A stretch of 64,000 nt of DNA, from IMG/VR virus record IMGVR_UViG_3300020050_014748; one strand, 5' to 3'. Below, piece by piece: positions 3,624 to 61,163 of this stretch. The position numbers were made by a program, and so were the translations under genes. Positions within the stretch are counted from its first letter, which is position 1. The number at the start of each line of letters is the position of its first letter. A model generated the notes under the pieces. That model was not told where the DNA came from, searched no databases, and saw nothing but the letters and a program-made list of their open reading frames with translations. Source of the DNA: a virus (Duplodnaviria; Heunggongvirae; Uroviricota; Caudoviricetes).

Positions 3624-3881
3624 TTATTTAGCACAATCTTTAAGCATTTTCATATCCCATCTTTTTGACGGTTTATAAAAACGAGATACATAGCCAACTT
3701 GATGAACACCACATTGACAATATCTATGTATCGCCATCTCACTTGGTGTACGACCTTCATATACAAGGTGTTCTACTGACCAATAATGTTTATGTTTTTT
3801 CTTGTATTTTTTTATATTGTTAGTTGGCATAATTAGTGTTTTACGCACAGATAAATATTTTCTTCTAATGTTCCACTGCAA
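3624..3881 (-). CDS. hypothetical basic protein
   Basis: First ORF of the minus-strand small-gene block. Confidence 0.4.
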   Translation of the reverse strand: MQWNIRRKYLSVRKTLIMPTNNIKKYKKKHKHYWSVEHLVYEGRTPSEMAIHRYCQCGVHQVGYVSRFYKPSKRWDMKMLKDCAK

Positions 3882-4021
3882 ATTATTTCATATTTTGGAC
3901 TAGCCCAATGTATTGCCCAAAATGATAACACAAGAACGAGAATAAAACAGGTTAACAAAAACATTGTTTGTACTATTACAATGAATAAATCTTTAATTGT
4001 TTTGTATTTGTATGCCATATA

Positions 4022-4450
4022 CTATTTCTCTCCCTTGGGGGTTAGGGTGGATAATTCATCTAGTTTTTGAAATGCTTTTTCAAGGGTCATTTTTGATAGT
4101 GATTGAACTGGCATATCCTCTTTCATGTGTTTTAGTAAACATTTCCTATGAAAAGGTGCGGAGCAATCAACACAAGCATAAGCACTTAGTATATTTACAG
4201 GTTCTCCACATCCCCCAATAAATGTTTTATCAGGCAATTCCATCAATTTACCGCACAGAACCGCTGAATTTTTTAATCCCTCCTCCACCGCCTTGTCATA
4301 TATGAGGGAGAGTTCGTCAGATAGAAATTCTTTGCCAAAATCTTCTTGTACTAATAAATGAATACCCGAAAAATCAGATGATTGCCAGTGTTCATTGGCA
4401 TATTTGTTCCATTTTTTAATACTTTCTTCTATAAGTTGTGATTTAGTCAT
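4022..4450 (-). CDS. hypothetical protein
   Basis: ORF tightly packed against the next gene (4-nt overlap). Confidence 0.45.
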   Translation of the reverse strand: MTKSQLIEESIKKWNKYANEHWQSSDFSGIHLLVQEDFGKEFLSDELSLIYDKAVEEGLKNSAVLCGKLMELPDKTFIGGCGEPVNILSAYACVDCSAPFHRKCLLKHMKEDMPVQSLSKMTLEKAFQKLDELSTLTPKGEK

Positions 4451-4902
4451 TGGGTTAAAAGGTTATTTATAAATAAAAGTGTTTCTTCTGGTTGGAGTTC
4501 AAGGTTGTCATTTTTGAGATTCCAGTAAATAGATATTTCCTTATCGTCTTTGTCTAAATAATCCATTCGCACCTCGCCTGTGGAATAGTAAAAGAAATTC
4601 ACTGGCTCATCTCCTATCGCCAAAAGCACATCAGCAATGCCTATCGTGCGACCGAGGATTTTAGTGATATGCTTTTCGTCAAACTGAACAAGACTTTCAG
4701 AACGACTTGCAAATCCCACAAAATCGAGAACATACTGCGTTTCTTCTACACGAACATGCCCTCTTTTATCTTCAATGATAGTAACACTTGTTACATAATT
4801 CTGAACAAAAACCTTACAACCAAATACCAAATCCAATATACTCGGATTCGCCTTGATAACTTCTTTTCGTATGTTTTCTATGAGTGAGTGTTTTGTTTTC
4901 AT
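4447..4902 (-). CDS. hypothetical protein
   Basis: ORF with 4-nt overlaps on both sides. Confidence 0.45.
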   Translation of the reverse strand: MKTKHSLIENIRKEVIKANPSILDLVFGCKVFVQNYVTSVTIIEDKRGHVRVEETQYVLDFVGFASRSESLVQFDEKHITKILGRTIGIADVLLAIGDEPVNFFYYSTGEVRMDYLDKDDKEISIYWNLKNDNLELQPEETLLFINNLLTQ

Positions 4903-11205: not shown

Positions 11206-11820
11206 CTATATTGAATTCATGTACTTTAATACTTTTTCCAATTTAGACTTAGGAACCATAACTTGGATCATTTCTTCCTTAACTTGTGGAATTATCCTTT
11301 TTATAACATCCTGAACAACATCAGATAGATTATCGCCCTTATAAGAGGCTATATCTGTGTGAGTGAGTATTGTATCAGCTTTTAATGGAACTTCGCTCTG
11401 TGAGGCTTGTAGGAGCTCACAGAGGGCTTTTAATTGCCATTCTGTGAGTGTTTTATCTATGGCGGTTATTTTCCCATCGCCATTAACATCATACCCCCAA
11501 GCCATTTCTACTCCAACAAAGAATTTGTTAGGATTATCAAAGTTTCCATCTAATTTCTTAGGTAGAACCTTTCTAGCGCGTTCGTTGGGATTTGATACAT
11601 TACCAGCGTGCCATGCAACGTCCTGTATTTTTACAAGCTGAAAAATTTCACCTTCATTTCTTCCTATAACAAAATGAGCTGACGAACGATTTTCACGATT
11701 ACCGTTAGATAACCATTCTATAGCACCCTTATAAGCACCTAGCGTACCGTGAATCACCCACCCAATCTTTTTTTCTTTCCCTATTGAGTAATTAGGGGTT
11801 TGTTTAAATGGTATTTGCAT
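11206..11820 (-). CDS. N-acetylmuramoyl-L-alanine amidase (Amidase_2/PGRP family), endolysin candidate
   Basis: WVIHGT, SAHFVIGRNGEIFQLV, AWHAGN and GVEMA motifs are typical of T7-lysozyme/PGRP amidases. Confidence 0.75.
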   Translation of the reverse strand: MQIPFKQTPNYSIGKEKKIGWVIHGTLGAYKGAIEWLSNGNRENRSSAHFVIGRNEGEIFQLVKIQDVAWHAGNVSNPNERARKVLPKKLDGNFDNPNKFFVGVEMAWGYDVNGDGKITAIDKTLTEWQLKALCELLQASQSEVPLKADTILTHTDIASYKGDNLSDVVQDVIKRIIPQVKEEMIQVMVPKSKLEKVLKYMNSI

Positions 11821-12056: not shown

Positions 12057-12058
12057 AG

Positions 12059-12133
12059 TCGGTCTGACTGGATTTGAACCAGTACTCGATCCCTTTTGAG
12101 GGGAGTGTCTCTACCAAATTGGACTACAGACCG
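12059..12133 (-). tRNA. tRNA, anticodon tentatively CAA (reads Leu UUG) but with a short variable loop
   Basis: Reverse complement gives acceptor CGGTCTG/CAGACCG, T-arm ACTGG-TTCAAAT-CCAGT, anticodon loop CTCAAAA and discriminator A. No encoded CCA. Confidence 0.6.
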
Positions 12134-12209
12134 GTAATGTAGAGCAATACCATTCTTGTCAGCTCATAGCTCTGACCGCATGAGTATCAAATTTGGTTTC
12201 TCTACATTG

Positions 12210-12283
12210 TCCGCCCAGCTAGATTCGAACTAGCACTGTGTGGGGTTTAAGTCCACTTCCTCTGCCGATTGGGATATGGGCGG
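12210..12283 (-). tRNA. tRNA, anticodon tentatively UAA (reads Leu UUA), short variable loop
   Basis: Acceptor CCGCCCA/TGGGCGG, T-arm GCTAG-TTCGAAT-CTAGC, anticodon stem GTGGA/CCCAC with loop CTTAAAC, discriminator A. Confidence 0.6.
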
Positions 12284-12304
12284 ATATTTAAATTTAAAAA
12301 CTAG

Positions 12305-12379
12305 TACCCCCGATGTGATTCGAACACATACTATCACGTTTCTAAGACGTGCGACTCCTTCCAGTTGGTCTACAGGGGC
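12305..12379 (-). tRNA. tRNA, anticodon tentatively UAG (reads Leu CUA), short variable loop
   Basis: Acceptor GCCCCTG/CGGGGGT with two G-U pairs, perfect anticodon stem CACGT/ACGTG with loop CTTAGAA, T-arm ATGTG-TTCGAAT-CACAT, discriminator A. Confidence 0.6.
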
Positions 12380-12542
12380 ATTTGCCATTCCAATATTTTT
12401 TAAAGAAGACTATTTCATGGCTCGATAAACTTCTAGTGAGTTTTTGTTGTTTTTGTTTTCTCACTGTATCGTGTTAGGTTTACGGATTTCTCCAGGTGTG
12501 TACCTTACGGCCTCTTACCCCAAGTATTCCACGATATAAAAA

Positions 12543-12779
12543 CTATTTCAAGTCTAATGCTCTAGTTAGTTCATCTTTAGAGAACCCAACAATAACCTTA
12601 TCGTCAATCGTTATAACAGGGACTCCTAGTTGCCCACTTTTTTCAATCATTTCTTTTTTCTTATCTGCATCTTCTGAAACATTAACTTCCTCAAATTCAA
12701 CTCCGTTTTCTTTTAAGAAATCTTTTGCAACAACACAATACTTACATGTTGGTGTACTGTATACTGTAACTTTTGACAT
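12543..12779 (-). CDS. glutaredoxin-like protein
   Basis: 78 aa with TCKYC active site, GVPVI and GF motifs; glutaredoxin/NrdH fold. Confidence 0.7.
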   Translation of the reverse strand: MSKVTVYSTPTCKYCVVAKDFLKENGVEFEEVNVSEDADKKKEMIEKSGQLGVPVITIDDKVIVGFSKDELTRALDLK

Positions 12780-12792
12780 AATTTTTTATTGG

Positions 12793-13080
12793 TTAACTTT
12801 GTAATTTACTTTCTCTTATTTTCTTAACATCTATTTTTGATTTTTCCCTGTGACATAATACACATAATATCTGACACTTAGAAACCTCAGATTCTCTTCT
12901 TTCTAACGAAAAACTCCAAATTCTATGTGTAACCTTTTTTGATGGATCAACATGATCAAGTTCGAGATTTTCTTTAGAATTACATTTAATACATTTCTTA
13001 TCTTTAAAAAACTCAAAACGTCTTCTTGCACACCATTCTCTTTGATATTTTCTTTTTGTTTCTATATTTTTCCAGGGCAT
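12793..13080 (-). CDS. HNH endonuclease
   Basis: LELDHVDP...CQILCVLCHREK His-Me finger. Confidence 0.6.
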   Translation of the reverse strand: MPWKNIETKRKYQREWCARRRFEFFKDKKCIKCNSKENLELDHVDPSKKVTHRIWSFSLERRESEVSKCQILCVLCHREKSKIDVKKIRESKLQS

Positions 13081-13107
13081 ATTTTACATATTATATTTAT
13101 AAAACAG

Positions 13108-13186
13108 TGCGTATGGTTTGAATCGAACAAACTCTCCCGAAGGCATAGATTTACAGTCTACTGTCCAACCATTGAACATCATACGC
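13108..13186 (-). tRNA. tRNA-Tyr (GUA), class II with long variable arm
   Basis: Acceptor GCGTATG/CATACGC, D-stem GTTC/GGAC, anticodon loop CTGTAAA, 13-nt variable arm GCCTTCGGGAGAG, T-arm GTTTG-TTCGATT-CAAAC. Confidence 0.75.
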
Positions 13187-13190
13187 ATGG

Positions 13191-13262
13191 CTAGCGGGCT
13201 AGGGGTCGGACCTAGAATCTATTGTTTCAAAGACAATCGTGTTACCATTACACTACCCACTA
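13191..13262 (-). tRNA. tRNA-Gln (UUG)
   Basis: Acceptor TAGTGGG/CCCGCTA, D-arm GTGT-AATGGTA-ACAC, anticodon stem ATTGT/ACAAT with loop CTTTGAA. The T-loop TCCGACC is atypical at position 55. Confidence 0.6.
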
Positions 13263-13675
13263 TTTTTTGATCTTTTAAAAGTTCTTATCCTGTGACAATT
13301 AGAACAAACAACTTCACATTTTTTAATCTCTTCTAAAATAATTTTTATGGAACATTTTATATTAACCGCATTAGACACTAGAAATTTTTTATCACGTATA
13401 TGATCAAAATCCATAACATAATAAGGATATATAATTCCACAATCAAAACATGGTTTATTTTTAGCTTCTTTTACTATTCTATGAATATACTCTGAACGTT
13501 TTTTATTATTTATTTTAAGTCTAGATTTTTCATTACCGTTCAAATAGTAAATATGTTTATAATAATCATTCCAACATTTTTTACACATAGAACCTAACCC
13601 GTCTTTTTTAGATTTATTTTTACTAAATTTATCAATTGATAAATTTAAATTACATTTATAACATTTCTTTTTCAT
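13253..13675 (-). CDS. HNH endonuclease with N-terminal zinc finger
   Basis: CYKCN...CKKC zinc finger, then MDFDHIRD...CEVVCSNCHRIR HNH motif. Confidence 0.6.
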   Translation of the reverse strand: MKKKCYKCNLNLSIDKFSKNKSKKDGLGSMCKKCWNDYYKHIYYLNGNEKSRLKINNKKRSEYIHRIVKEAKNKPCFDCGIIYPYYVMDFDHIRDKKFLVSNAVNIKCSIKIILEEIKKCEVVCSNCHRIRTFKRSKNSG

Positions 13676-13695
13676 AATTTTTATTACTCACCTAG

Positions 13696-13767
13696 TAGCG
13701 GGCCCCAGTAACGATCTGGATTTTTCAAAGTTATGAGCCTTGTGGGATCCCTGACCCCCCGCCCGCT
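13696..13767 (-). tRNA. tRNA with CAU anticodon (Met or Ile2), atypical T-loop
   Basis: Acceptor AGCGGGC/GCCCGCT, D-arm GGGG-TCAGGGA-TCCC, anticodon stem CAAGG/CTTTG with loop CTCATAA. The T-loop ATCGTTA is non-canonical. Confidence 0.45.
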
Positions 13768-13798
13768 ATTTAGGTAGATTTCTCTACCTAAAAACTAA

Positions 13799-13969
13799 CT
13801 ATTCACAAGAATCACACTTCACTGCATCCTGTGGATCTTCAGGCATAGAATCAATAGACTCTACAGCTTCTTGAACAGAATCAACAGTTTCAGTAACTTC
13901 TTCCATTGCAGGCTGTGCGTCTACAACTTCTACAGTTTCTTCAACTACAACATTTTCGTTATTTTCCAT
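13799..13969 (-). CDS. small highly acidic protein (56 aa, MENNENVVVEETVEVVDAQPAMEEV...)
   Basis: Manual translation of a minus-strand ORF between two tRNAs; about 40% Asp/Glu. Confidence 0.3.
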   Translation of the reverse strand: MENNENVVVEETVEVVDAQPAMEEVTETVDSVQEAVESIDSMPEDPQDAVKCDSCE

Positions 13970-13993
13970 ATTGTTTTAAAAATTAATTAATAA

Positions 13994-14067
13994 TGGTCAG
14001 AGATGAGAGAATCGAACTCCCGACTTACCCGTCCAAGGGGCATATGATACCATTTCAACAATCTCTG
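13994..14067 (-). tRNA. tRNA-Pro (UGG) with encoded CCA
   Basis: Acceptor CAGAGAT/ATCTCTG, anticodon stem TGCCC/GGGTA with loop CTTGGAC, T-arm GGGAG-TTCGATT-CTCTC, 3' ACCA. Confidence 0.7.
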
Positions 14068-15107
14068 TGGTGAACCATGCTTGCTAAGCCTGTGGTATAT
14101 GCCTTTAAGTATTTCTACCGGCAATCTTTTCTCTGGTACTAGCTTTGTGTACATTATTGGGTCAGTCAACCCGCGCCCCAATCTTCCTTCAGGTGGACGT
14201 GTAGGGAGTTACACCCTAATCTTTAATCGGTATCTTAACTTAATCTACATTGCCTGTCTGAATATACATCAGCGGTTTCCGCTTGGTTCACCAGCATATT
14301 TTATTTTTTTATCACTTCCGTATAATAAAAAAACTCCGAAAGCTATCTTGCAAATATTATGCGTACATCCACACTGCAAGAGTTATGTGGAGTACACACC
14401 GCTAGGCTGTTACGAGACCGAAGTCTGCGAAAGAGAAAAACGGAGAAACGATAGACTGGTTTGAGTTTATCAAGAGATCACTTTTAAGAGATATGATCAT
14501 ACTCTGCTATGCAAAATTAAAATAAACAACTAAATCGAAATTCGTCACGCCCAAGTGCAGGCCACGCGCTACCCATCACGGTTTCAAGTATACCCCTTGG
14601 TTTCACTCCAAAGTTACAACTATACCGTGCCTCACTACAGCCCCCATTTTTATCTGGGCTCTATAGAAGCCTTGTCCGCCTGCGAAACATTTAATTTTAA
14701 TGAACTGCGAGCCGACCTAGACTTGCACTAGGACGAACGGTTTTGGAGACCGAAATGCTGCTATTACATCATCGACTCAAGATATGTGAGTACGATATAT
14801 TGCTGAGTGCTATATAAACAAAACTTCAGTCAATCATAACGACAACACCACATATCCTCATTATTGCGACAATGGATAAGAGAAGCCTTAGCTGTTCTGT
14901 CCACTGCAATAATGAGAGTGTTACAGTAATGTAACACATGTGCGAGATAAGAGACTTGGACTCTTTTTTTCAGTTTGGAAAACTGACGTAATACCGTATA
15001 TACCAATCTCGCATAACTAATGGGACTTTAACAAAATAAATCATAATATGATTTAACCTGGTTTATTTCATTCACCAGAATCCCACTAATTCTCATCACT
15101 TACAAAT
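14068..15107 (-). ncRNA. candidate large structured non-coding RNA (about 1 kb, ORF-free, locally GC-enriched), transcribed from the consensus promoter at 15108-15139 toward the tRNA cluster
   Basis: No ORF of 60 aa or more on either strand across about 1 kb in an otherwise gene-dense genome. GC is higher than the flanks. Long-range helix TGGTGAACCA (14068-14077) pairs with TGGTTCACCA (14275-14284). Perfect hairpins include GTGTTACA-GTAA-TGTAACAC near 14925-14944. A family promoter lies immediately upstream on the minus strand and tRNA-Pro immediately downstream. Confidence 0.35.
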
Positions 15108-16847: not shown

Positions 16848-17156
16848 CTAAGAATACAACTCAACGCACTCTTGTATTTTTTTTGACTTATAATTTTCTT
16901 CAACACACTGACTTCTAATTTCACTATTATCAATACCGTAACATGGGTCATTAGAAGTATTCACATCGACACTTTCTGTTGTTTTTTGTATTGCAGATTT
17001 TTCAAACTTTGAATTTCTGTCATCAAGATAAGTACTATTAATTACATCTTTTGATTCTTTATTTTCAGATACCGAAGCCAAGATTACAGAAATAAGTATC
17101 CCCATGATAGCAATTATTGTTAATACCTCTATTAATGTAAAACCTTTATTTTTCAT
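16848..17156 (-). CDS. type IV prepilin-like protein (class III signal peptide)
   Basis: MKNKG|FTLIEVLTIIAIMGILISV matches the prepilin peptidase site G|FTLIE with Glu at +5 and a hydrophobic helix. Confidence 0.55.
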   Translation of the reverse strand: MKNKGFTLIEVLTIIAIMGILISVILASVSENKESKDVINSTYLDDRNSKFEKSAIQKTTESVDVNTSNDPCYGIDNSEIRSQCVEENYKSKKIQECVELYS

Positions 17157-17157
17157 A

Positions 17158-18012
17158 CTATTTAATATTTATAAATGGAACAGAATTACCCATCATGTAC
17201 TGAGGTACATCACCTTTCCATTGTTTAATAGCTTGCAATTGAACATAATCAGCTCCACCCTGTGAGTTAATAGCCTGAGACTGAATTTTAATTGATTCTG
17301 CCTCACCTTGAGCTTGAACAATCTTCTGTTCCTTTTCGTACTTAGCTTGTTCTAGTTTATTTTTAGCACCTAGGGCACTTTGCTCAGCTGTAACTTTTAA
17401 TTCCACAGCCTCACTAAATGCTTTTGAGAATTCAAAATTGGTAACTGAGAAATCCTCAAGAATAGAGCTTTTTTCTGTGAGTTGCGTATCAAGTATCATG
17501 TTAACCTTGTCACTATATTCAGATCTCTTTGTAACAAGTTCCTCTGCTGTAAATTCTGCTGAGGTTGACTTAACAATTTGACGAACCATTGGTTCAATAA
17601 CATTTACTTCATAATTATCAACAGAACTATACTGTGAATATATTTGTATCGCCTTAGTTGGGTCAACGTGATATGTTACAACAACACCAATCTTTACATC
17701 TTGAAGATCTTTTGATGCACCAAATAATTCTGATGTATCCTTTGAATCTCCCTCTTTACCATTCTTATCGTAATTTATTGTTCTAGTCTTAACATCCATC
17801 TTGTAGACTTTTTCAATAACTGGAAACTTCAAATAAGGTCCTTGATTAATTATCCCAACTACTTTTCCGAGCCGTGTTTTAACTCCAACAGATCCTGCTT
17901 TTATAATCCCGAAACTGCTAAATACGAGAACAGTTAGAACCAAACCAATAACTATATGCTTAATAACCTTACCTACATTCAACTCACCATTTTCTTTTGT
18001 ATACATTTTCAT
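17158..18012 (-). CDS. SPFH/Band-7 (prohibitin/HflKC-like) membrane protein
   Basis: N-terminal TM, then an SPFH core and a C-terminal coiled coil (AEQSALGAKNKLEQAKYEKEQKIVQAQGEAE). Confidence 0.7.
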   Translation of the reverse strand: MKMYTKENGELNVGKVIKHIVIGLVLTVLVFSSFGIIKAGSVGVKTRLGKVVGIINQGPYLKFPVIEKVYKMDVKTRTINYDKNGKEGDSKDTSELFGASKDLQDVKIGVVVTYHVDPTKAIQIYSQYSSVDNYEVNVIEPMVRQIVKSTSAEFTAEELVTKRSEYSDKVNMILDTQLTEKSSILEDFSVTNFEFSKAFSEAVELKVTAEQSALGAKNKLEQAKYEKEQKIVQAQGEAESIKIQSQAINSQGGADYVQLQAIKQWKGDVPQYMMGNSVPFINIK

Positions 18013-18056: not shown

Positions 18057-18088
18057 CCATTATACTCCCCTATATTAAAGAAGTCAAG
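18057..18088 (-). promoter_or_regulatory. promoter family copy
   Basis: Minus strand reads CTTGACTTCTTTAATATAGGGGAGTATAATGG; overlaps the 3' end of the helicase gene. Confidence 0.65.
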
Positions 18089-34086: not shown

Positions 34087-34656
34087 ATGGATGAATCAAA
34101 AAAAGAAGAAATTGTTAGTGTTGAACCGGAAAGTGAAGTAAAAGAAAATACTATTGATCAGAAAAACGCAGAAGATAAGAAGGATGAGCCGATAGATTTT
34201 CTTCTTAGAATTGTCCCTGAACACAGAAAGGTGAGTAGGGAAGTTACAGAGGGTGATATTGAAAGAGTGATAGAAGAAGCAAAAGTACTTTTTAATATCT
34301 GTTATTCTCAGAATGGTCCGTATAATGGTGCACTTGCGATGGCCCATCCACAAATAGACGATAAGGATCCACTTAGATTTTTTGTAACTGCAAGTGCTGA
34401 ATTAATAATAAATCCAGTTATTGTGAGACGAACAAAAACTACAATAGATTCAGTTGAGGGTTGCTATACATACCCAAGCTTACCACCACTTAAGACCGTC
34501 CAAAGATCAAATAAGATTGAGGTTGAATATCAAACAATAGAAGAAGACGGGAAACTATCAAGGGTGTCATACAAGGGGGTAAGTGGGAAGGAAGCAAAAG
34601 TTTGGCAACACGAAATTGGGCATTTGGATGCAGTTTATATATACGATAATAATTAA
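34087..34656 (+). CDS. hypothetical protein
   Basis: ORF. Confidence 0.45.
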   Translation: MDESKKEEIVSVEPESEVKENTIDQKNAEDKKDEPIDFLLRIVPEHRKVSREVTEGDIERVIEEAKVLFNICYSQNGPYNGALAMAHPQIDDKDPLRFFVTASAELIINPVIVRRTKTTIDSVEGCYTYPSLPPLKTVQRSNKIEVEYQTIEEDGKLSRVSYKGVSGKEAKVWQHEIGHLDAVYIYDNN

Positions 34657-36766: not shown

Positions 36767-38398
36767 ATGGCTATAAATAAAGAAATTACATTTGGGGAAG
36801 GTGCATTAACTCGAATACAAAAAGGTATAAATACAGTAGCTGAACTAGCTGGTGTAACACTCGGCCCTCGTGGTAGAAATATCATTGTTGATAGAGGTAT
36901 TATGCCACCAAGTATCAGTAATGATGGCCTTGATGGCATACGAACAGTTATACTAAAGGATCGTCTTCAGAATATGGGAGCAGACATTGTTAGAGATGTT
37001 GCAATTAAAACTAACGATAAAGCAAGAGGAGCAAGAACAGCTTCTATTGTGTTAACACAATCAATTTTTAATGAAGGTTTTAGCCAGATAAAAAAGGGTG
37101 TTAATGTTATTGCAATTAAAAAGGGTATTGAAAAGGGTGCTGCTTATGTAATTGAAGAACTAAAGAAAAGAGCTACTAAGATTGAAACAAATGATCAATT
37201 GAAAGCAGTTGCTACTATATCATCTGAATCAGAAGAATGTGGTGCTATTGTAGCTGAAGCATTTGATAAGGTGGGTAAAGATGGAATCGTCAAAGCAGAG
37301 GAGTCTACTTTGAGTAGTGGTATTACTCTTGAAATTGTTGATGGAATGAAAATAGAGAGAGGTTGGATTAACCCGTGGATGGTCAACAATCCAAATAAGA
37401 TGGAGGCAGAATACGATAATGTTGCAGTTATGATTGTTGATAAAAAGATGATCCAAATCAAAGACTTTCTTCCTATTCAAGAAAAAATGGCAACATCTGG
37501 TATTGGAGAACTTCTTATTATAGCAGAAGATGTTGATGGTGAGGCGCTTGAGACACTCGTGGGTAATAATATGAGAGGAGGATTTCGTGTTGTTGCAATT
37601 AAATCTCCAGGGTTTGGTGTTGAAAAGAAAGAGATACTTAAGGATATTGAAATATTGACTGGTGCAAAGATAATCTCAGATGAAACAGGGAACCCAATGA
37701 AGACAGCGGAACTTGATAGTGTTGGTTTTGCAAAGAAGATTGTTGTATCTAGAAATGAAACAGTAATCATTGGTAATCCAAATACAAAAGAACTTGTTAA
37801 TAATAGAATAGAAGAACTTAAAACTCAACTTTCAGAACTTAAATCAAACATTGATATTAAGAATATGGAGTCAAGAATAGGAAAACTCTCTGGAGGAGCT
37901 GGTATAATAAAGATAGGAGCATTAACAGAAGCCGGAATGAAATATCTTAAAATGAAGATTGATGACTCTATTGATGAGGCAAGAAATTCACTTCAGGAAG
38001 GATTCGTAAAAGGTGGAGGCTCTGAGTTGTTTAGTATTGCAGACAGTATGTCACTTGAAAGTAAGGAAATGACAGCAGAAGAAAAAATTGGTTTCAATAT
38101 TGTCATGGAATCAATTAAGATGCCACTCAAGAAAATCATGATAAATGCTGGTGAGAACGATATTGAAGCAATGGAAAAAGAACTCTCTTTGAGACTGAAA
38201 GAACATAAAGATTCTGGTTATGATGCAATATCTGGTAAGATTGTTGATGATATGATAGAAGCTGGTATAATAGATTCTATTAAGGTTATTATAATCGCAT
38301 TACAGAATGCAGCAGAAGCAGCGGCAACTGCACTCACAATAGGAGCATCGGTCTCAGATGAAATAAAAGATAAAGAAGAAGACAAGAATAATTATTAA
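36767..38398 (+). CDS. GroEL/Cpn60-like chaperonin (divergent)
   Basis: VTLGPRGRNII, NMGA and apical/equatorial blocks are conserved; lacks the C-terminal GGM repeats. Confidence 0.8.
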   Translation: MAINKEITFGEGALTRIQKGINTVAELAGVTLGPRGRNIIVDRGIMPPSISNDGLDGIRTVILKDRLQNMGADIVRDVAIKTNDKARGARTASIVLTQSIFNEGFSQIKKGVNVIAIKKGIEKGAAYVIEELKKRATKIETNDQLKAVATISSESEECGAIVAEAFDKVGKDGIVKAEESTLSSGITLEIVDGMKIERGWINPWMVNNPNKMEAEYDNVAVMIVDKKMIQIKDFLPIQEKMATSGIGELLIIAEDVDGEALETLVGNNMRGGFRVVAIKSPGFGVEKKEILKDIEILTGAKIISDETGNPMKTAELDSVGFAKKIVVSRNETVIIGNPNTKELVNNRIEELKTQLSELKSNIDIKNMESRIGKLSGGAGIIKIGALTEAGMKYLKMKIDDSIDEARNSLQEGFVKGGGSELFSIADSMSLESKEMTAEEKIGFNIVMESIKMPLKKIMINAGENDIEAMEKELSLRLKEHKDSGYDAISGKIVDDMIEAGIIDSIKVIIIALQNAAEAAATALTIGASVSDEIKDKEEDKNNY

Positions 38399-39510: not shown

Positions 39511-39546
39511 AAAAACAACCCTATTAGTTAGGGTTGTTTTTTATTG
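39511..39546. terminator. bidirectional rho-independent terminator between convergent blocks
   Basis: AAAAA-CAACCCTA-TTAGT-TAGGGTTG-TTTTTTATT; the hairpin overlaps the stop codon of the giant gene. Confidence 0.7.
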
Positions 39547-42500
39547 TGTTAGTTAAATTTGAGTATTTTTGAGTTGGTGTGTCAATGTTCGGTGTCTCAG
39601 GGTTTAATGAGAAATCAACACCTTCAGATGCCTCAAGATAAGCCTTAGCAACCTTAGGTGATGCATTAATTATAGTATTAAGTCTATATACATACCGGGG
39701 GGTATCGTACTTACCTGTGTCAAATGAAATATTACCATCTTTTGTTACTGCAGCCCATCGAGCGATTGAATCAATGTCTTCTTGTGTATATGTTCCATTA
39801 TCAACATTATCAAGGAAAAAATCTTCAATTTCTTTTATTAATTCCTTTTTATTTGCTTTTGATATTCCTTTTTTATTGTATTCTTTTTTTATGTTTTTAA
39901 ATAATTTTATAAACTGATTTAATGATTTATTTTCGAGTGGTATATCAGTCAATGATTCTCTGACATTTTTAACACCAAGTTTATCAGCATCTAATCTTAC
40001 CTTGTCTGGTATTCTAAAAGTTATTGTTTCTGGTAGGCTTAACCACTTCTCTTGATATGGAGTTATTCTTCCACCACTTTCTTTTATATTTTTAATTAAT
40101 TCAATTGATGGTTTTAATCTAGTAAAAACCTCATCAAGATTTTTACTTTTTTCTGATATTTTTTCAATATTAAATATTTTTTGGATATTTGACATTGCAC
40201 CTTTAATTGATCTTGCTTCACTATTTGATATCGTATCTCCTATTTTTTCTTCTGTTTTTTTAATATTAAATTTTTTTTGAATGTTTAGTATTGTATCACT
40301 ATATGTTTCTTTTTCTTTTGTTGATTTTTTTATATTTTTAGGTATGTTTTTATCACTCAGTTTTTTAAAAACTTGTTTTATCATCCAAGATGGATTATTG
40401 TCTTCACTTCTATTTACTATATCTAGTGATTTTTTGGAGTCAAGGGCTTCCTGTAGGGCCTGACTTCTTAGTTGTCTTTCTGTTTTACCCCAAGATGGAA
40501 TTGCGATAAAATCATCTGGACTTGAATTAGTAAAACCAGACTCAACAAGATTTCCATTTGAAAAAATATCATATTTTGACCTACCCTCCCCTGGTTTTAC
40601 TTTGTAAATTTTAATTTTTAAATCATTTTCTATTATTGTATCCATAACACGATTTACTACAGATATGTGACTTGTCTGATCATCTCCAACAAGCTGATTT
40701 TTGATAACATTAATTATGTTCTTTGATGTAACATATCCAGATTTTGTAACATTAACTTCAGTGAATGGTGTCGCCAGATTTCCTCTCTTGAGTACAGCAT
40801 TAGCATAACTCTCAGGAACACCACCCTCACCAACTTTTATAATAAGCATCTTGTCCCCATCTTGGTCAGCTTGGTGTATAACTCTCTCGTTAAAATGACT
40901 CACAACAGCATGTTCTCTTCCAAGACTCTCGTGCCCTAATTTTGTGCCGTTAATAGCCTTAGCAACTGTGATGTTGTTAATATCATAAGAAGGATCGCGC
41001 ATAATCATAACCTTATCACCTTCTTTTATATCCCTCTTCTTCATAAATTCAGCACCTAGTACAACTTCATCATCTTTAACATACCGCCATGGTTTATTAG
41101 GTCCATCTATTGGTAATTTAATGGATGGTGAGTAGAATAATCTACCACTATTAGGTAGGTTGTCAGACAATACTGTTTCCATAAACATGTTCTTTGATAT
41201 CTTCTCGAGGTTGTGGGCAAGGTTTACTCTTGCGGCTCCAAGCTTAAATGATTCACCCATTGGTCCGTAGAATAGTTCATCTTTATCTAAGTTATATTTT
41301 TCTGCGTATTTATCTATGACTTTTTCTAGTTTTTCTTTTGTATTTGCTTCCATTGCCTCCTTGTTAAAGGCCTCAAAATCTTTTCTTCTTTTGGCTGTTT
41401 CCGCAAGCATATCTTCTGTTACTTTTGGATCATTACTTGAGAATTTTCTTTCTAGGGATGATTTAACACGTCCATCCTCACTTGCGCTAATAGGTTTAAA
41501 ATATATATCAGATATATTTACATCGAGTGATCCCTCCTTTGGTCCAAGTTTCATGTTTGTATCAAAAGTTACTATTTCATTTCTTCCAAGATCTAAACCA
41601 TATTCTTCTTTGAGCATTTTTCTATATGCAGCATCAGCTCTTGTCATGTGGCTTTTCATTATTATTTTAACTTTTGACCCATCAGCTTTTTCTACATATC
41701 CAGAAATAAGAGGTTTTGAACCTGTTGTGTATTTTGTTGGGTCATAATCAACTCCCCCTATAGATTTATCAAAAAAATCTTCACCTGCTATTGTCTTACC
41801 ATCGACTTCTGATCCCTTCTTAAATGATTCTACTGCTTTTCTTGCTTTTTCACTTTGTGGATCTTCAAACTTAGATGAATCTATGTCTAATTCTTTTCGA
41901 TCTCCTATTGTTTTTGCCTTTAAAATATGCATCTTTACCTTACCTGTTTCTTTTGAAACATCATAGCGATGAGTATTCAAGTTTGATCTTTTAACAAAGT
42001 CACCAGCTGTTGCATCTTTAGGCCAACCTAAAACATCAACAGAGAAAGTTCTTATAAATTTATCATCCGAAGAAAATTCTGAGGTTTTTTCACCCTTATT
42101 TAAATATTTTAAAGGATTAGTATCAAAATCCTTAACAAGTTTAGGTTCTTTTTTTATGAATACTATACCATCTGATCCTTTTTTAACAATCCCGAGTGGG
42201 GTATAACCTTTTTTGTCAAGATGTTGTATTTCGTCTGTTAAATAATAAAGTATATTCCTACTATCAGTTGGATTTTTTATTTCATCGCGATAATTATTAT
42301 TTTTCCCAACATGAATAATCTCCATTGAGTCTTCAGGGAGTCCGTTTTCTTTATTGAATTTTTTTATATCCTTATCTAGTTGTCCAATGTTTTCTTTAGA
42401 TCCTTCTTTAAATACCAATCCATACCCACCTTTATTAAGAATAATCTCCTTTCTTGTCCCAGAATTTGCTTTTCTTCTATATAGCCAACTTAGATCTCTT

Positions 42501-45500
42501 AAATCTTTTGTGTTTGTAATTTCAAAAGAATCATCTCCTGTTGCTTTTTTAATCTTATTTGTAAATATTTCAATAAACTTAGGCCATCCTTCGTTTATAT
42601 TTTCGCCATTATTAGATACCTCTTTTGCTAGTTTTGTTATGTTTTTTTCCGTAAAATCTCTCCTTGTTTTAGGATCTGATATTATTGAAGCAACTCCAGC
42701 ATTAACACCTTCCTCTCCTCTTCCTGTCATTATAAAGTTTCTAAAATTTGGAGATTTTACTTTTTTAACTGTTTTTTCAACGGGTGTCATATCAGCTCTG
42801 TCAGATTCATTTACAATAGTATTCTCAATATTTTTTGATGTAACATAACCACTATCTTGTGTTGTTGGTATTTCAGGTGTTTTAACTATTGTTTTTTGTT
42901 CAGGGATTATCTCTGTTTTTCCGATAGTATCTATATTGGTACCATCGTTCTGTTTTTGTATTGTCGTATCAACTACCGGTTTTTTATTTGGTACCTGTTC
43001 TACTGATTCAACTACTGGTGTTGCTGGATTGTTAGATTCTTTTGCTAATCTTTCTGTGTTTATTGAATCTTCAAATCTTCCGTCTGTAAGTTGTACTCTT
43101 AGGTGGTATTCTTGTTTTCCACTACTCTTACCCCCCTTAGTGGTCATTAATCCTGTTTTTAACGGAAGAATTCTTCCCCAAACACCCTTAATTCCATTAT
43201 CTCTCAGTGATTGACTTAATGTATCTTTATTATTAAATTTATTGTATTCAATAAGGCTATCTGGTCCTTCTGTGTTAACCTTTTCGTTCATTTTTGGTAT
43301 TCTACTTTCTCTCGCAACAAAACCAAGTGAAATAAAAGTATTTTCACCTGTTTCTGGATGTTTTATAACACCAAATGCTTCAACTGTATTTTGTGGATTT
43401 TTAAATGGAGTAAACTCACCTTTGTCTATTTTTTCTTTAGGTGTTGTTTTATTTAAAAACTCCATTTTGTTTTTATAATCACTACCTCTATCCATCAAGA
43501 ATACATTATCACCAAACGGAGCTTCTCCTGATTTTACTGCTTTGTCAAATGCTTCTATGTTTAATCTAGTCTTTCCTTCATTAATAGTACTTCCACCTCC
43601 AGTTAATGGATAAATACCTGTAGCTGAGAATTTACCACTAGGTTTTTCTGTGAAATTAACAGGTGAAAGATCCTTTTGTGTTGAATTGCCGTATGTTTCA
43701 TAAAGATGATTAGGAATTTTATCACCAAGTACACCCGTAATTGTTTTTGATTCTTGTAATTGTTTTGCTATAGATTTTACATCAGCAATATCTGCACGAT
43801 CTCTGATTATAGCACCCATACCTCCTTTATCTAATTGTCTAACAGAAGCAAGGGCTTTCAGTAACTCAGAGTCAGACTCACGAGGTGTCCAACCTTCATC
43901 ATAAGCAGCTTGTTCTATGTTTGTTAAAGCTTCTTCTTTTATTGACTCTAATTCTTTTTGTGTGTATTTTCTTGATCCATTTCCACTCTTAGTTGTATTA
44001 ACGGGTGCCCATTTATTAAGAACATCATTAGAAGCCTCATCAGCAACCTTGTTCATTTCTCTAACAATAACATCCTCATATTTCTCACCCTTATTAACTA
44101 TTGTTGAGTGTTTATCTCCCTTCCAATTCATTACATCTCTAGATAATGGTGATTTTTGCATCATCTTACTACCCATGCCGTGCAAACCTACCATTGTAAC
44201 CGCGCTGGCAAATGCATCTTCTGGTGATTCTCCGTTTATTGTACTTAGAACAAGTGCAGGTGCTACCATTTTTGCATATCCTTTTAGATTTTGCCCTGCT
44301 GTTGTGAACAGTGAACCCATTATTGCTTCTGTTGCAAATGTACCCGCATAATCCATAAAATCAGACTCACTTTGTGTATCTAATCCATCATGTATTGCTT
44401 GCTTAGCAACACCAAAAGACCCGAAATTAAAAGCATTTCGAAGTATAGGGCTATATTTTATACGAGCTGCAACTCTTTTGTCTATTTCCATTGGGATTTG
44501 TTGCAAGTCAAGATTACCTTCTGCTTTTGCTAACCTATTTGCATCCTTAAGTGCCTTTGTTGCATTCACAACTTGTGTTTTTGATATTTTCCCAGTTTCT
44601 TTGCCAAAATTATTAATTTTAGAAAGAGCGCTCTTTACTTTTTCAAACCCTGGTATTTTAATTTTACTAGATAACTCTGGTGCTATTGTTTTAATTGGAT
44701 TCATATCAAAAAGCCCGGCATTCCACGGTAATGGTTTAACAACATTTGATACAGGACTTTTTGCAAAAACCTTACCCAAACCTGGTATTTTTGATAATAC
44801 TATTCTTGTTTTTGTTAATCCTTTGATAAAACCACCGAGTGTTCCTATTGTTGATATACCATATCCAGTACCGTATGCTATTTTTTCTGCAGTAGTACGC
44901 TCTTCTGGTTCTTCAAGAATAGCCAAACCAGCAGGAGATCCCATGACAAGACCCTTTCCGAATTCACCAGCTATTGTATTTTCACCCTTGTCATTTTCTC
45001 CAAATTTTGCGAATACTGAAGGGATTTCCTTCCATACAGCTTTTACTGAGTCAGTAAAAGAATGACCGAAAGTCCCCTTAGGGTGCTGTACGTCAAATTC
45101 AAATTTTTGTTTCGCCTTAATTGCTGCATCATCAAGACCCAGGAGTTTATAATATTCCTCTTTAGCTTTATTTTTTTCTTCTCTATCTAGTCCGTACGCA
45201 ATCTTTGATAATTCATCAGCTTTTTCTCTTGGAAGATTTGTTATCATTCCAAATTTATCAGGCATTGGAAGATCATCTACATTGTATGACTCCCAGTTGA
45301 GTGCCATCGTAAATGCTTCATCCCTTGTTATTTTACCTTGAGTCAATAGTGTAAGAGGAATGGCCTGTGCTTTTGTTTTTCTAATATGGTCCTTTGTATT
45401 TAAAACCTGCTTGTTTTCGAGTGTGTCTAATCCACCTAGCCATAAGGGTATGATGTGATCTATTTGAACTTCAATTTTTGATCTTCCACCTCTTAGTATT

Positions 45501-45913
45501 TTATTCTCTTCTGGTTCGTATCCTCTACTCGATTTTATTATTATACCAGGTTGGGTTGGATCTAGTGCATATTGCCCGCCACCCATTTTTTCTGATATGT
45601 TTCTTGCTACTGTTTTATCAGATGGATTACCCCACATAACCTCACCCTCTGGTGTTTTTTGTCCAGGTAAAAAATTTGATGAAAGATAACTCTCTGGAAG
45701 TTCTTGCATTTTAGATGAAGAAGGAAGTGATACTTGGACCTTCTCTGGCATAAGTGATTCACTTTCTATCCCCGTCTCTATTTTTTGAGGTGTTCTTATA
45801 TATGGTGATACATAAGAACTAGAAATACCACTCTGTACACTTTTTTGTAAGTTCTTAAAATTAGATGGACTTATTTTGTCTAAATATTCTGAATTTTCTT
45901 TTATATTTGCCAT
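39524..45913 (-). CDS. giant virion-type protein (2129 aa) with N-terminal HNH-like motif and a DxDGD (RNA polymerase beta-prime double-psi beta-barrel-like) motif; candidate virion-packaged RNA polymerase or injected protein
   Basis: Uninterrupted 6.4-kb ORF. Near aa 150-180, QIDHIIPLWLGGLDTLENKQVLNTKDH is a His-Me finger. At nt 40847-40870, ADQDGDKM (compare universal beta-prime NADFDGDQM) is preceded by RDPSYD...H. Confidence 0.7.
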   Translation of the reverse strand: MANIKENSEYLDKISPSNFKNLQKSVQSGISSSYVSPYIRTPQKIETGIESESLMPEKVQVSLPSSSKMQELPESYLSSNFLPGQKTPEGEVMWGNPSDKTVARNISEKMGGGQYALDPTQPGIIIKSSRGYEPEENKILRGGRSKIEVQIDHIIPLWLGGLDTLENKQVLNTKDHIRKTKAQAIPLTLLTQGKITRDEAFTMALNWESYNVDDLPMPDKFGMITNLPREKADELSKIAYGLDREEKNKAKEEYYKLLGLDDAAIKAKQKFEFDVQHPKGTFGHSFTDSVKAVWKEIPSVFAKFGENDKGENTIAGEFGKGLVMGSPAGLAILEEPEERTTAEKIAYGTGYGISTIGTLGGFIKGLTKTRIVLSKIPGLGKVFAKSPVSNVVKPLPWNAGLFDMNPIKTIAPELSSKIKIPGFEKVKSALSKINNFGKETGKISKTQVVNATKALKDANRLAKAEGNLDLQQIPMEIDKRVAARIKYSPILRNAFNFGSFGVAKQAIHDGLDTQSESDFMDYAGTFATEAIMGSLFTTAGQNLKGYAKMVAPALVLSTINGESPEDAFASAVTMVGLHGMGSKMMQKSPLSRDVMNWKGDKHSTIVNKGEKYEDVIVREMNKVADEASNDVLNKWAPVNTTKSGNGSRKYTQKELESIKEEALTNIEQAAYDEGWTPRESDSELLKALASVRQLDKGGMGAIIRDRADIADVKSIAKQLQESKTITGVLGDKIPNHLYETYGNSTQKDLSPVNFTEKPSGKFSATGIYPLTGGGSTINEGKTRLNIEAFDKAVKSGEAPFGDNVFLMDRGSDYKNKMEFLNKTTPKEKIDKGEFTPFKNPQNTVEAFGVIKHPETGENTFISLGFVARESRIPKMNEKVNTEGPDSLIEYNKFNNKDTLSQSLRDNGIKGVWGRILPLKTGLMTTKGGKSSGKQEYHLRVQLTDGRFEDSINTERLAKESNNPATPVVESVEQVPNKKPVVDTTIQKQNDGTNIDTIGKTEIIPEQKTIVKTPEIPTTQDSGYVTSKNIENTIVNESDRADMTPVEKTVKKVKSPNFRNFIMTGRGEEGVNAGVASIISDPKTRRDFTEKNITKLAKEVSNNGENINEGWPKFIEIFTNKIKKATGDDSFEITNTKDLRDLSWLYRRKANSGTRKEIILNKGGYGLVFKEGSKENIGQLDKDIKKFNKENGLPEDSMEIIHVGKNNNYRDEIKNPTDSRNILYYLTDEIQHLDKKGYTPLGIVKKGSDGIVFIKKEPKLVKDFDTNPLKYLNKGEKTSEFSSDDKFIRTFSVDVLGWPKDATAGDFVKRSNLNTHRYDVSKETGKVKMHILKAKTIGDRKELDIDSSKFEDPQSEKARKAVESFKKGSEVDGKTIAGEDFFDKSIGGVDYDPTKYTTGSKPLISGYVEKADGSKVKIIMKSHMTRADAAYRKMLKEEYGLDLGRNEIVTFDTNMKLGPKEGSLDVNISDIYFKPISASEDGRVKSSLERKFSSNDPKVTEDMLAETAKRRKDFEAFNKEAMEANTKEKLEKVIDKYAEKYNLDKDELFYGPMGESFKLGAARVNLAHNLEKISKNMFMETVLSDNLPNSGRLFYSPSIKLPIDGPNKPWRYVKDDEVVLGAEFMKKRDIKEGDKVMIMRDPSYDINNITVAKAINGTKLGHESLGREHAVVSHFNERVIHQADQDGDKMLIIKVGEGGVPESYANAVLKRGNLATPFTEVNVTKSGYVTSKNIINVIKNQLVGDDQTSHISVVNRVMDTIIENDLKIKIYKVKPGEGRSKYDIFSNGNLVESGFTNSSPDDFIAIPSWGKTERQLRSQALQEALDSKKSLDIVNRSEDNNPSWMIKQVFKKLSDKNIPKNIKKSTKEKETYSDTILNIQKKFNIKKTEEKIGDTISNSEARSIKGAMSNIQKIFNIEKISEKSKNLDEVFTRLKPSIELIKNIKESGGRITPYQEKWLSLPETITFRIPDKVRLDADKLGVKNVRESLTDIPLENKSLNQFIKLFKNIKKEYNKKGISKANKKELIKEIEDFFLDNVDNGTYTQEDIDSIARWAAVTKDGNISFDTGKYDTPRYVYRLNTIINASPKVAKAYLEASEGVDFSLNPETPNIDTPTQKYSNLTNTIKNNPN

Positions 45914-48072: not shown

Positions 48073-48501
48073 TTATTTTAGATATTTCTTTGGATTTTTA
48101 AATTTGCCGAAAGAATCTACAATTCTATAATCTAAGTGGTCAGATGGGCCACCAGAATTTGAATAACTAGATCCACTGTCACCCATTGATCCAATGATTT
48201 TATTCTTAGGAACCATTTCCCCTGGTTTTACCATAATATCACGAAGGTGGCTATATCTATGTACGTTATTCTTTTTATCTTTTACTAAAATAGAATTCCC
48301 AAAACCATGATCTCCGTTTTTTTGCCCCGGCTTTACACCCACAACCTGACCTTCCTCCATGTTTGGAATAGGTGTTCCCTTTTTATTAGCGATATCTACG
48401 CCAGGGTGAAACTTTTCGTACTTAGTCTTACCTCCGTATTGGGTGGTAATATTCCCTAACGATGACAAGTTTGGATATTTCTTTTTTGGGACATTCTCCA
48501 T
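48073..48501 (-). CDS. M23-family peptidase (LytM-like endopeptidase)
   Basis: HPGVDIA (HxGxD) and a C-terminal GDSGSS...HLDYRI (HxH-like) motif. Confidence 0.6.
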   Translation of the reverse strand: MENVPKKKYPNLSSLGNITTQYGGKTKYEKFHPGVDIANKKGTPIPNMEEGQVVGVKPGQKNGDHGFGNSILVKDKKNNVHRYSHLRDIMVKPGEMVPKNKIIGSMGDSGSSYSNSGGPSDHLDYRIVDSFGKFKNPKKYLK

Positions 48502-60506: not shown

Positions 60507-61163
60507 TTATTTAAATCTAGTTTTTTTACCGATATCTGAATGTACTTTCTTGTGGCAAGACCTACATAATGTTAGTCCATTATCAATATCAAACCTTAAT
60601 TCTGGGTACTCATTAAAGCCTTTTATATGGTGAGCAACTGGACTCTTTTGTTTAATGTTACACATTCTACAAGTCCAATAATCTCTTTTATATACACCTT
60701 TTCTCCAAATGTTATATTCTTTTGATTTTCGAATCAAATGGTTTGCTTCAGTTTTCCCACCTTTCCAGTTCCAGTGATTTTCTCGTGAGAGTTTTTTTAC
60801 ATGATCGGCACTTTTAGGCTTACCCTTATTCCCTGCTGATATATTATTCCGATGGCTTTCTGTGAATTTTTTACCTAACCATACTTTAGTAATATAACCA
60901 GTGTGGCCCTTTTTAAAAAAGCCGTATTTTAATGGGTCAAGATTTCTATATTCTCTTCTACACTCACTAGAACATGTTACTATTTTATTCAACCTGGATT
61001 TTGATATCTGTATTTCTTTTTTACAATTCTTACATAAAATAATTATTCTATTTTTATTATAAGAACAAGATCTTGAACAGAATTTTATTTTAGCCCATTC
61101 ATATTTTTTATAATTACAACTTCTTAGTATAATATTACACCCCTCACATTTTTTTGTTTCCAT
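60507..61163 (-). CDS. HNH endonuclease with N-terminal Cys-rich zinc fingers
   Basis: C-terminal AHHIKGF...LTLCRSCHKKVH motif. Confidence 0.55.
   Translation of the reverse strand: METKKCEGCNIILRSCNYKKYEWAKIKFCSRSCSYNKNRIIILCKNCKKEIQISKSRLNKIVTCSSECRREYRNLDPLKYGFFKKGHTGYITKVWLGKKFTESHRNNISAGNKGKPKSADHVKKLSRENHWNWKGGKTEANHLIRKSKEYNIWRKGVYKRDYWTCRMCNIKQKSPVAHHIKGFNEYPELRFDIDNGLTLCRSCHKKVHSDIGKKTRFK

Follow-up and report, generated by a model that had tools for sequence, protein, structure and literature searches.

Recurrent pairing of a headless pilin-like gene with a prohibitin-type SPFH gene in uncultivated phages, probably of Patescibacteria

Pilin-like genes are known from phages, and several PHROGs families hold them. 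According to Sztanko et al. (Cell Rep 2026, PMC12952977), the P-FimU protein of F10-like Pseudomonas prophages replaces a minor pilin of the host and blocks pilus-tip phages, and truncated PilA-like genes of 60 residues occur in six virulent Pseudomonas phages, for which a block of pilus-dependent superinfection, by either incorporation or inhibition of assembly, was proposed. The SNJ2 provirus of Natrinema also codes for proteins with a class III signal; these are complete pilins that use the host pilus machinery to form filaments, which a second virus uses as its receptor, and they are not accompanied by an SPFH gene (PMC12426801). The present study concerns two adjoining genes in a 64,000-nucleotide stretch of DNA from a virus of the Caudoviricetes (IMG/VR record IMGVR_UViG_3300020050_014748), referred to below, at its full length, as the window. 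The smaller gene codes for a 102-residue protein with the N-terminus of a prepilin and no pilin head, termed here a mini-pilin, and the larger one for a prohibitin-type SPFH (Band_7) protein. Phage pilin mimicry itself is already known; here it is coupled to an SPFH scaffold in putative Candidate Phyla Radiation (CPR) phages, and this coupling appears to be undescribed so far.

Related outcomes and related architectures are known from several other systems. Tip, Aqs1 and PlzR are cytoplasmic phage inhibitors of type IV pili, which bind PilB or PilZ; the outcome, a loss of pilus function, is possibly the same as that considered here, but these inhibitors lack a class III signal. On the side of the larger gene, HflK/C and the prohibitins modulate or gate FtsH-type (FtsH/m-AAA) proteases, and in the SPFH-NfeD operons (e.g., qmcA-ybbJ, yuaF-floT) an SPFH gene is co-transcribed with that of a small membrane protein, as would be the case in the window. 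The partner encoded in the window differs from those of the latter operons in its prepilin signal, its all-helical prediction and the lack of an NfeD/OB-fold domain. As far as we know, the SPFH/prohibitin genes of phages have no assigned function. Literature searches for a link between SPFH proteins and pilins or prepilins returned no paper, and those for pilin or SPFH genes in CPR phages returned no mention of either. An earlier note on this DNA, made from its letters alone, knew of no described phage module with this pairing; this appears to hold for the SPFH link, whereas phage pilin-like genes as such had been described (PHROGs; PMC12952977).

Compared with the Pseudomonas proteins, the mini-pilin shares the prepilin-type N-terminus of both groups and fits the truncated PilA-like class, in which only the N-terminal pilin helix (~30 residues) is retained. 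P-FimU is a minor pilin of full length that possesses a head, and its incorporation was shown, whereas the mini-pilin has no head. The hallmark of P-FimU, full-length similarity to a host pilus subunit, was not found in our homologue search: similarity to generic pilins ends after ~35 residues, in a plateau of thousands of ~63-bit matches confined to the N-terminus, and no likeness to any specific host pilin was found past that point. For the truncated PilA-like genes the function is putative and the accessible text mentions no SPFH neighbour, whereas the mini-pilin gene is tied to a prohibitin-type gene. Relative to the phage pilins of Pseudomonas reported there, the present case differs in its host, probably one of the Patescibacteria, and in the private three-cysteine domain at the C-terminus of the long mini-pilin forms. 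The SNJ2 pilins differ from the mini-pilin in that the latter is headless and SPFH-linked.

The mini-pilin begins with MKNKGFTLIEVLTIIAIMGILISV, in which a short basic leader, MKNKG, is followed by FTLIEVLTIIAIMGILISVILA, thus placing Gly at position -1, Phe at +1 and Glu at +5, ahead of a run of ~20 hydrophobic residues. The protein matches the Pfam N_methyl model PF07963 with 29 bits (curated cut-off 21.2) and TIGR02532 (IV_pilin_GFxxxE) with 22 bits (curated cut-off 16.3), both matches spanning residues 2-26. The class III signal that the earlier note had read in this open reading frame (ORF) is therefore confirmed by both models. Six-frame translation of the 64-kb window gave no other match within an ORF to the pattern G-[hydrophobic]-T-L-I-E followed by a hydrophobic run; the other match to the expression, at 27338, reaches a stop without any start codon. 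Neither pilus machinery nor further pilin genes were found beside the mini-pilin in the window, and a scan of ~50 window proteins revealed no gene for a peptidase A24.

The remainder of the protein does not resemble a pilin. An AlphaFold model, built from 19 family members, contains an N-terminal helix at residues 8-33, with block means of the predicted local distance difference test (pLDDT) of ~91 for residues 11-20 and ~83 for residues 21-30, a disordered linker at residues 35-66 (pLDDT <50 at residues 35-50, 52-54 and 57-66), and a C-terminal loop and helix at residues 78-101 (block means of 86-90 over residues 71-100). The model is all-helical, without strands, and no globular alpha-beta head was found in it; a Foldseek search of the model against the PDB gave no match, which says no more than that a pilin fold is lacking. 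None of the pilin and pseudopilin family models (GspG/H/I, ComGC/D/E, PilA) came near its cut-off. The best equivalog match, GspH, reached 32 bits against a cut-off of 80 and aligned only the N-terminal ~35 residues, and all of these models align solely with residues ~1-40. A tblastn search against GenBank phages yielded N-terminal matches alone (Acinetobacter phage Acibel004 and a Vibrio phage), without an SPFH context. On these profile matches we assign the mini-pilin to the class of proteins with a prepilin-type N-terminal domain, and not to the pilins. The "pilin or pseudopilin" of the earlier note is accordingly not upheld, given the missing head, the equivalog scores far below their cut-offs, and the existence of partners as short as 30 residues. 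The PADLOC defence models matched neither protein of the pair nor the two downstream ORFs, and neither of the paired proteins is a known defence component.

The family to which the mini-pilin belongs is conserved almost exclusively in this N-terminal part. The identical 102-residue protein occurs on seven contigs of JGI metagenomes, with Band_7 adjacent on the three contigs inspected; the longest listed contig measures 70.6 kb. In a set of 57 non-redundant relatives, 55 retain Gly-1, 55 retain Phe+1 and all 57 retain Glu+5, the last count being partly circular, as Glu+5 was part of the detection pattern for the sequences derived from loci (those derived by HMMER are not affected). The earlier note had made its reading depend on the presence of the G-F-x-x-x-E site in homologues; most relatives keep the site, and an exception with Arg-1 and Leu+1, which goes some way towards the case that the note had named as a refutation, is treated below. 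The N-terminal ~30 residues are nearly identical among partners, even where the accompanying SPFH proteins have diverged to ~37-45% identity, and the segment common to all partners consists of the class III signal and the helix alone.

Beyond that segment the relatives vary widely, from 30 to 130 residues. About 20 long forms (97-130 residues) have in common the N-terminus and a three-cysteine motif at the C-terminus, with the three Cys at least 90% conserved in an alignment of 19 of them. Many long forms also display a short C-K-K-D-P-T-H-x-G-C loop directly after the helix. The linker region shows large indels in the long-form alignment and is missing from the short forms, which measure 30, 42, 43, 46, 49, 54, 55 and 60 residues. 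The shortest of them is encoded at positions 2485-2577 of locus L009 (IMG/VR UViG_3300029305_002887) and reads MKNKGFTLIELLATIVILAIIILTIVGGLR, i.e., leader and helix with nothing more. It has a perfect AGGAGG 8 nt upstream and a TAA stop that overlaps the ATG of the SPFH gene (TAATG), the gene order being reversed relative to the window and the SPFH protein 37% identical. Because partners as short as 30 residues exist, the long tail is optional. By this comparison of sequences, everything past the helix is dispensable and the conserved unit is the class III signal together with the alpha1 helix.

The 284-residue product of the larger gene matches Band_7 with 108.8 bits (cut-off 23.6), as well as phrog_200, and lies directly upstream of the mini-pilin gene at a distance of 1 nt, as the earlier note had described. 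It is built of an N-terminal hydrophobic anchor (~residues 20-37), the SPFH domain and a coiled-coil C-terminal part, an architecture shared with prohibitin and HflK-HflC. Among solved structures it is best matched by prohibitin-2 (8rrh_B, E=6e-22) and prohibitin-1, in alignments that cover residues ~97-263, and a homologue with 66% identity bears the NCBI name "prohibitin family protein". The HflK and HflC equivalog models, in contrast, remain far below their cut-offs (28 bits versus 134 for hflC and 22 versus 159 for hflK). On these scores the larger protein is a member of the prohibitin branch of the SPFH proteins and not HflK/C; unlike the latter it is phage-encoded, and its link with FtsH is putative. 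More than 2300 homologues were retrieved at E<=1e-20. Homologues occur in 154 GenBank phage records as well, with at most 35% identity to the window protein, and no pilin-like neighbour was found beside the SPFH gene in the three best of these records.

The frequency of the pairing was assessed in 165 non-duplicate loci, assembled from SPFH homologues in IMG/VR, GTDB genomes and metagenomes. A pair was counted where a pilin-like ORF lay <=250 bp downstream on the same strand, among loci with enough downstream room. Where the SPFH protein is at least 55% identical to that of the window, 8 of 42 loci are paired by this measure; the corresponding figures are 8 of 25 at 43-55% identity and 2 of 90 below 43%, where three upstream matches, two of them genuine (L070 and L169), must be added. 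When a distance of 1.8 kb is allowed, a partner is present in 21 of 63 close SPFH homologues. The look-ups in the reverse direction, which provide the stronger test, started from four long and two short pilin-like homologues; in all six, Band_7 was encoded on the same strand no more than 1.7 kb upstream, three with the 1-nt junction and three with one to four small ORFs between the two genes. The 1-nt junction of the window recurs in L001, L003, L201, L202 and L203.

Across 24 paired loci, most have only the SPFH and mini-pilin genes in common (a replication initiator is present in 6 and DUF5659 in 4); since the flanking genes vary while the pair stays, the pair persists through changing surroundings. 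The order of the two genes is reversed in L009 and L070, and the partner lies upstream in L169. On a rough neighbour-joining tree of the SPFH proteins, 11 changes of the paired state were required; when the labels were shuffled 1000 times, the mean was 17.6 and no shuffle needed fewer than 12. The paired state is thus clustered on the tree and is not monophyletic, a distribution that fits an old association of the two genes with repeated loss. The alignment columns that separate paired from unpaired SPFH proteins are scattered (216, 119, 9, 185, 263 and others), most simply as a phylogenetic signal. The pairing is a real and recurrent module, present in dozens of related uncultivated phages.

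Additional genes were encountered in or near the position occupied by the pair. A hydrophilic, probably coiled-coil protein of ~60-75 residues (consensus ...RKRV...IE.KI...Q..YD...) is encoded directly downstream of the SPFH gene in L025, L033, L124, L147 and L151, and in some loci it lies between the SPFH and mini-pilin genes. Four loci with SPFH proteins of ~35% identity (L073, L079, L082 and L083) contain a different prepilin-type family of 81-92 residues, M-K-Q-R-G-[FIL]-T-L-I-E ... GINGMTESRCIEGYKF..., which is encoded 0.9-2.4 kb upstream and is not adjacent. In L001 (6698-9603), L201 and L202, genes for S-adenosylhomocysteine hydrolase, S-adenosylmethionine (SAM) synthetase and a sugar-nucleotidyl transferase adjoin the pair; in the phage of the window their place is taken by HAD_SAK_2 and unknown ORFs.

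In cellular genomes, the nearest relatives of the SPFH protein, with 56-67% identity, all belong to metagenome-assembled genomes (MAGs) of Patescibacteria (Saccharibacteria, Minisyncoccia, Kaiserbacteria, Paceibacterota and Parcubacteria), apart from one "Nanoarchaeota" bin from a 0.2-um groundwater fraction. Two of these cellular genes are located on contigs of 179 and 189 kb, amid non-phage genes (OmdA/YdeI, DUF1428, KGG, DpnI-like). Many related contigs originate from the groundwater of Hainich, in which Patescibacteria make up 59% of total MAG relative abundance. The host of the phage is therefore probably a member of the Patescibacteria, as judged by homology and MAG binning. Type IV pili are nearly universal in this lineage and PilD is encoded by Nanosynbacter lyticus TM7x, for which pilin gene mutants have also been reported (PMC11623550), so that the prepilin peptidase for which the earlier note proposed to search the host is documented in one member of the presumed host group. 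None of 18 cellular genome loci has a pilin-like neighbour beside the SPFH gene, and we infer that the mini-pilin is a phage-side addition to an SPFH gene common to the host lineage.

We tentatively favour the reading, to which we assign a probability of roughly 0.4, that the mini-pilin is a pilin-mimic decoy stabilised or organised by the SPFH scaffold. This reading is preferred because the residues for prepilin recognition and filament packing are extremely conserved, the rest of the protein is dispensable, and a precedent exists. The two proteins would form an early-expressed membrane module, composed of a prohibitin-type SPFH protein and a co-transcribed mini-pilin without a pilin head; the SPFH protein presumably forms the ring or cage assemblies typical of its family, and the mini-pilin would be inserted like a pilin, with its N-terminus in and its C-terminus out. 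Recognition of the mini-pilin by the prepilin peptidase of the host, and by those parts of the pilus machinery that bind alpha1, would follow. The mini-pilin could then act as a decoy or poison, either by competing for PilD as a substrate, by entering the pilus as a chain-terminating or non-receptor subunit, or by serving as a sink for the pilin pool. The infected cell would thereby lose functional pili, which are its organ of DNA uptake and probable phage receptors. The role of the SPFH assembly would be to concentrate the mini-pilin in a microdomain or to shield it against FtsH-type quality control, in the manner of HflK/C and the prohibitins with FtsH/m-AAA substrates, which presupposes a putative physical contact between the two proteins. 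The suggestion of the earlier note that the SPFH protein could organise the insertion of the small protein into the membrane is likewise putative. The earlier note had proposed superinfection exclusion as a role for such a phage pilin, an idea for which P-FimU provides, by analogy, an experimental precedent (PMC12952977).

Two elaborations of the decoy reading can be added. In Synechocystis, the Sec/YidC translocon is poisoned when prepilin accumulates in unprocessed form (PMC8546353); by analogy, an over-produced or uncleavable mini-prepilin could jam membrane-protein biogenesis, and this would fit the relative that carries Arg at position -1. In the other elaboration, which we regard as rather unlikely, a prohibitin-like cage would use the headless pilin helix as bait, either capturing prepilins, PilD or the pilus platform or holding a bait that is shielded from FtsH. 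The type IV pili, which Patescibacteria need to attach, to take up DNA and, probably, for the adsorption of phages, would thereby be switched off.

Several observations weigh against a decoy directed at pili, and most of them speak for a different role of the small protein, as a subunit that assists or regulates the SPFH complex, analogous to an NfeD partner. In this role the class III segment would be an anchor, adopted as an efficient way of export in a host with many prepilin-type proteins, and the function would concern the membrane or FtsH instead of pili. We consider this role doubtful, although it is the best of the alternatives. The dependence between the two genes runs one way: all pilin-like members that were looked up have an SPFH gene upstream, and about two thirds to three quarters of the close SPFH homologues have no partner, so that the SPFH protein must have a function of its own. 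The position after the SPFH gene also accommodates other small genes, namely ordinary single-transmembrane proteins in 8 of 64 close loci and the recurrent coiled-coil protein described above. Tight gene packing is general in these phages, and the spacing alone is therefore weak evidence. The three-cysteine motif was found solely on ORFs with a pilin-type N-terminus in all loci collected; such a private domain, with its conserved Cys-rich C-terminal helix, would be superfluous for a pure decoy and is readily accommodated by a subunit. One ectodomain, C-x13-P-[AV]-K-C-L-x-[YH]-[FY], occurs on three anchors, pilin-type (P0005), degenerate (L151) and ordinary transmembrane (L031), and in L031 and L151 the genes lie downstream of SPFH genes; this suggests that the class III helix may be an interchangeable anchor. 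The prohibitin-like nature of the SPFH protein is a further point in favour of a subunit, in view of the modulation of FtsH-type proteases by its relatives.

Variants at the cleavage site point in the same direction. In L121 (P0004), a phage with an SNF2 helicase ~98% identical to that of the window, the leader MKNKR is followed by LTLIE, giving Arg-1 and Leu+1, and in L099 position -1 is occupied by Val. Cleavage by PilD requires Gly at -1, and the Arg-1 variant should thus not be cleaved; by these two sequences, cleavage may not be essential. The presumed host, in addition, is a weak point of the decoy reading, as its assignment derives only from homology and MAG binning. A subunit role, for its part, leaves unexplained the near-invariant Gly-1, Phe+1 and Glu+5 and the pilin-consensus N-termini, none of which a generic anchor needs, as well as the 30-residue partner that has no ectodomain at all. 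Furthermore, the SPFH genes of cellular Patescibacteria lack such a partner. An NfeD partner proper was rejected, as no Pfam match to an NfeD domain was obtained for the 102-residue protein.

A true minor pilin or pseudopilin, processed and built into the host pilus in the manner of P-FimU, was the literal proposal of the earlier note. The complete class III signal and the precedents of P-FimU and the SNJ2 pilins are in accord with it, and size would be no obstacle, as the PilA of Geobacter is naturally short and very small pilins can assemble. Nevertheless, we judge it quite improbable: the model lacks an alpha-beta head and has no Foldseek match in the PDB, the equivalog models reach only residues ~1-40 with scores far below their cut-offs, partners of 30-46 residues exist, no resemblance to a host pilin extends past the N-terminus, and the Arg-1 variant would have to be accounted for.

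It is similarly improbable that the two genes are unrelated "morons" placed side by side by an insertion hot spot at the 3' end of the SPFH gene. The high variability of this slot and the many SPFH genes without a partner would be expected of a hot spot, and L121 (JACCDG010694206.1) provides an actual insertion: the SPFH and mini-pilin genes are separated precisely by a gene for a 222-residue Vsr/DUF559-type endonuclease (3880-4548). Strong divergence affects the SPFH gene at its 3' end and the mini-pilin gene over its 5' ~120 nt, and the remainder is nearly identical, a pattern suggestive of insertion by a homing endonuclease and co-conversion of the flanking sequence. Against a hot spot stand the six of six look-ups from the pilin side that led to an SPFH gene, the retention of the pair as the flanks change, the existence of both gene orders with overlapping stop and start codons, and the significant clustering and long life of the pairing on the SPFH tree; moreover, a mini-pilin is lacking in the three best GenBank phage records, the SPFH genes of which are more distant, so that the slot does not generally hold one. 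A lysis-timing or holin-like membrane pair, to which a small single-transmembrane protein beside a membrane protein might point, given that SPFH proteins can affect membrane integrity, was rejected as highly improbable, since a canonical holin and an amidase are encoded elsewhere (Table 1), the pair resides in the helicase/replication arm, and known holins make no use of a class III motif.

Table 1. Positions of the paired genes, their component segments and related features in the window

Feature	Position	Strand	Basis
Headless mini-pilin gene, 102 aa	16848..17156	minus	PF07963 and TIGR02532 matches, AlphaFold model
Prohibitin-type SPFH/Band_7 protein, 284 aa	17158..18012	minus	Band_7 domain match
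Gene junction: SPFH stop TAG (17158-17160), 1 nt, mini-pilin ATG (17154-17156)	17154..17160	minus	Sequence
Class III leader MKNKG, residues 1-5, ending with Gly-1	17142..17156	minus	Sequence
Pilin alpha1-type hydrophobic helix, residues 6-33, with F+1 and E+5	17058..17141	minus	Hidden Markov model and AlphaFold
Polar low-complexity linker, ~residues 34-66	16959..17057	minus	Low pLDDT; indels in family alignment
Three-cysteine motif C-x-G-I-x(8)-C-x(12)-C-[IV]-x-[RL]-Y (C72, C84, C97)	16851..16943	minus	Family alignment
Promoter-like TTGACT-17 nt-TATAAT, 11/12	18059..18087	minus	Consensus scan
Holin	62110-62556		Profile/annotation of window
Amidase	11206-11820		Profile/annotation of window

The promoter-like site of Table 1 falls within the 71 bp that separate the SPFH gene from the gene of the SNF2 helicase. 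The earlier note had placed a promoter at 18057-18088; the 11/12 consensus match is indeed present, although the scan as a whole returned 32 sites versus 28 expected from shuffles and is thus not enriched. The site at 18087->18059 is a consensus match, for which a promoter role is plausible. The same hexamer pair, TTGACT-17-TATAAT (11/12), is also found in intergenic positions at 15138->15110 (minus) and 20198->20226 (plus), and the three sites may represent a family of early promoters on either side of the switch in coding strand at ~19.8-20.2 kb, which coincides with a change of sign in the GC skew.

The window is phage DNA, from a phage of ~70 kb, and the pair is located in its early/replication arm, beside helicase and replication genes. 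By profile search, the neighbours of the mini-pilin gene are the SPFH gene, the SNF2 helicase gene and a HAD phosphatase gene. Replication and recombination functions are represented in the window by PrimPol-DnaB, RecA, RuvC, an SbcC-like ATPase, a DnaC-like loader and the SNF2 helicase; other genes include those for a Cpn60 chaperonin, a peptide deformylase, a dUTPase, tail proteins and lysins, in addition to the holin and amidase. A DNA search with 7 kb around the pair gave no match to GenBank phages, and the phage is therefore without a sequenced close relative there.

Some further features of the window may be recorded. Eight tRNA genes (three for Leu and one each for Tyr, Gln, Met, Pro and Gly) occupy 12058-15012 on the minus strand, just downstream of the operon of the pair. 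The Cpn60/GroEL-type chaperonin (166 bits) is encoded at 36767-38398 and the peptide deformylase at 34087-34656, both on the plus strand. The tail/structural arm is headed by an ORF of 2129 residues (39524-45913, minus), adjoined by one of 718 residues (45915-48071, minus), and neither has a PHROG match. A 1262-residue protein (48526-52314, minus) gave several separate matches to endolysin-type domains and is followed by the gene of a small metallo-endopeptidase (phrog_7767; 48073-48501, minus); the two are probably a tail-associated apparatus for the degradation of cell walls. An HNH endonuclease gene (60507-61163, minus) is situated among the tail and structural genes.

SPFH genes are common in phages, both in GenBank records and, by the thousands, among metagenomic homologues, and the conserved partner, with its legible targeting signal, offers a first concrete and testable handle on them. 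Should a cage with bait prove to be correct, it would constitute a mechanistically new form of receptor shut-down and the first function of a phage SPFH protein. Headless mini-pilins would also be useful as probes of the specificity of PilD and of the role of alpha1 in pilus assembly. Type IV pili are central to the episymbiosis of Patescibacteria, the phages of which are known almost solely from metagenomes. If directed at pili, the pair would rank among the earliest proposals of a specific mechanism by which CPR phages interact with their hosts, and its recurrence suggests a new route by which phages may tamper with the pili or the membrane of their hosts.

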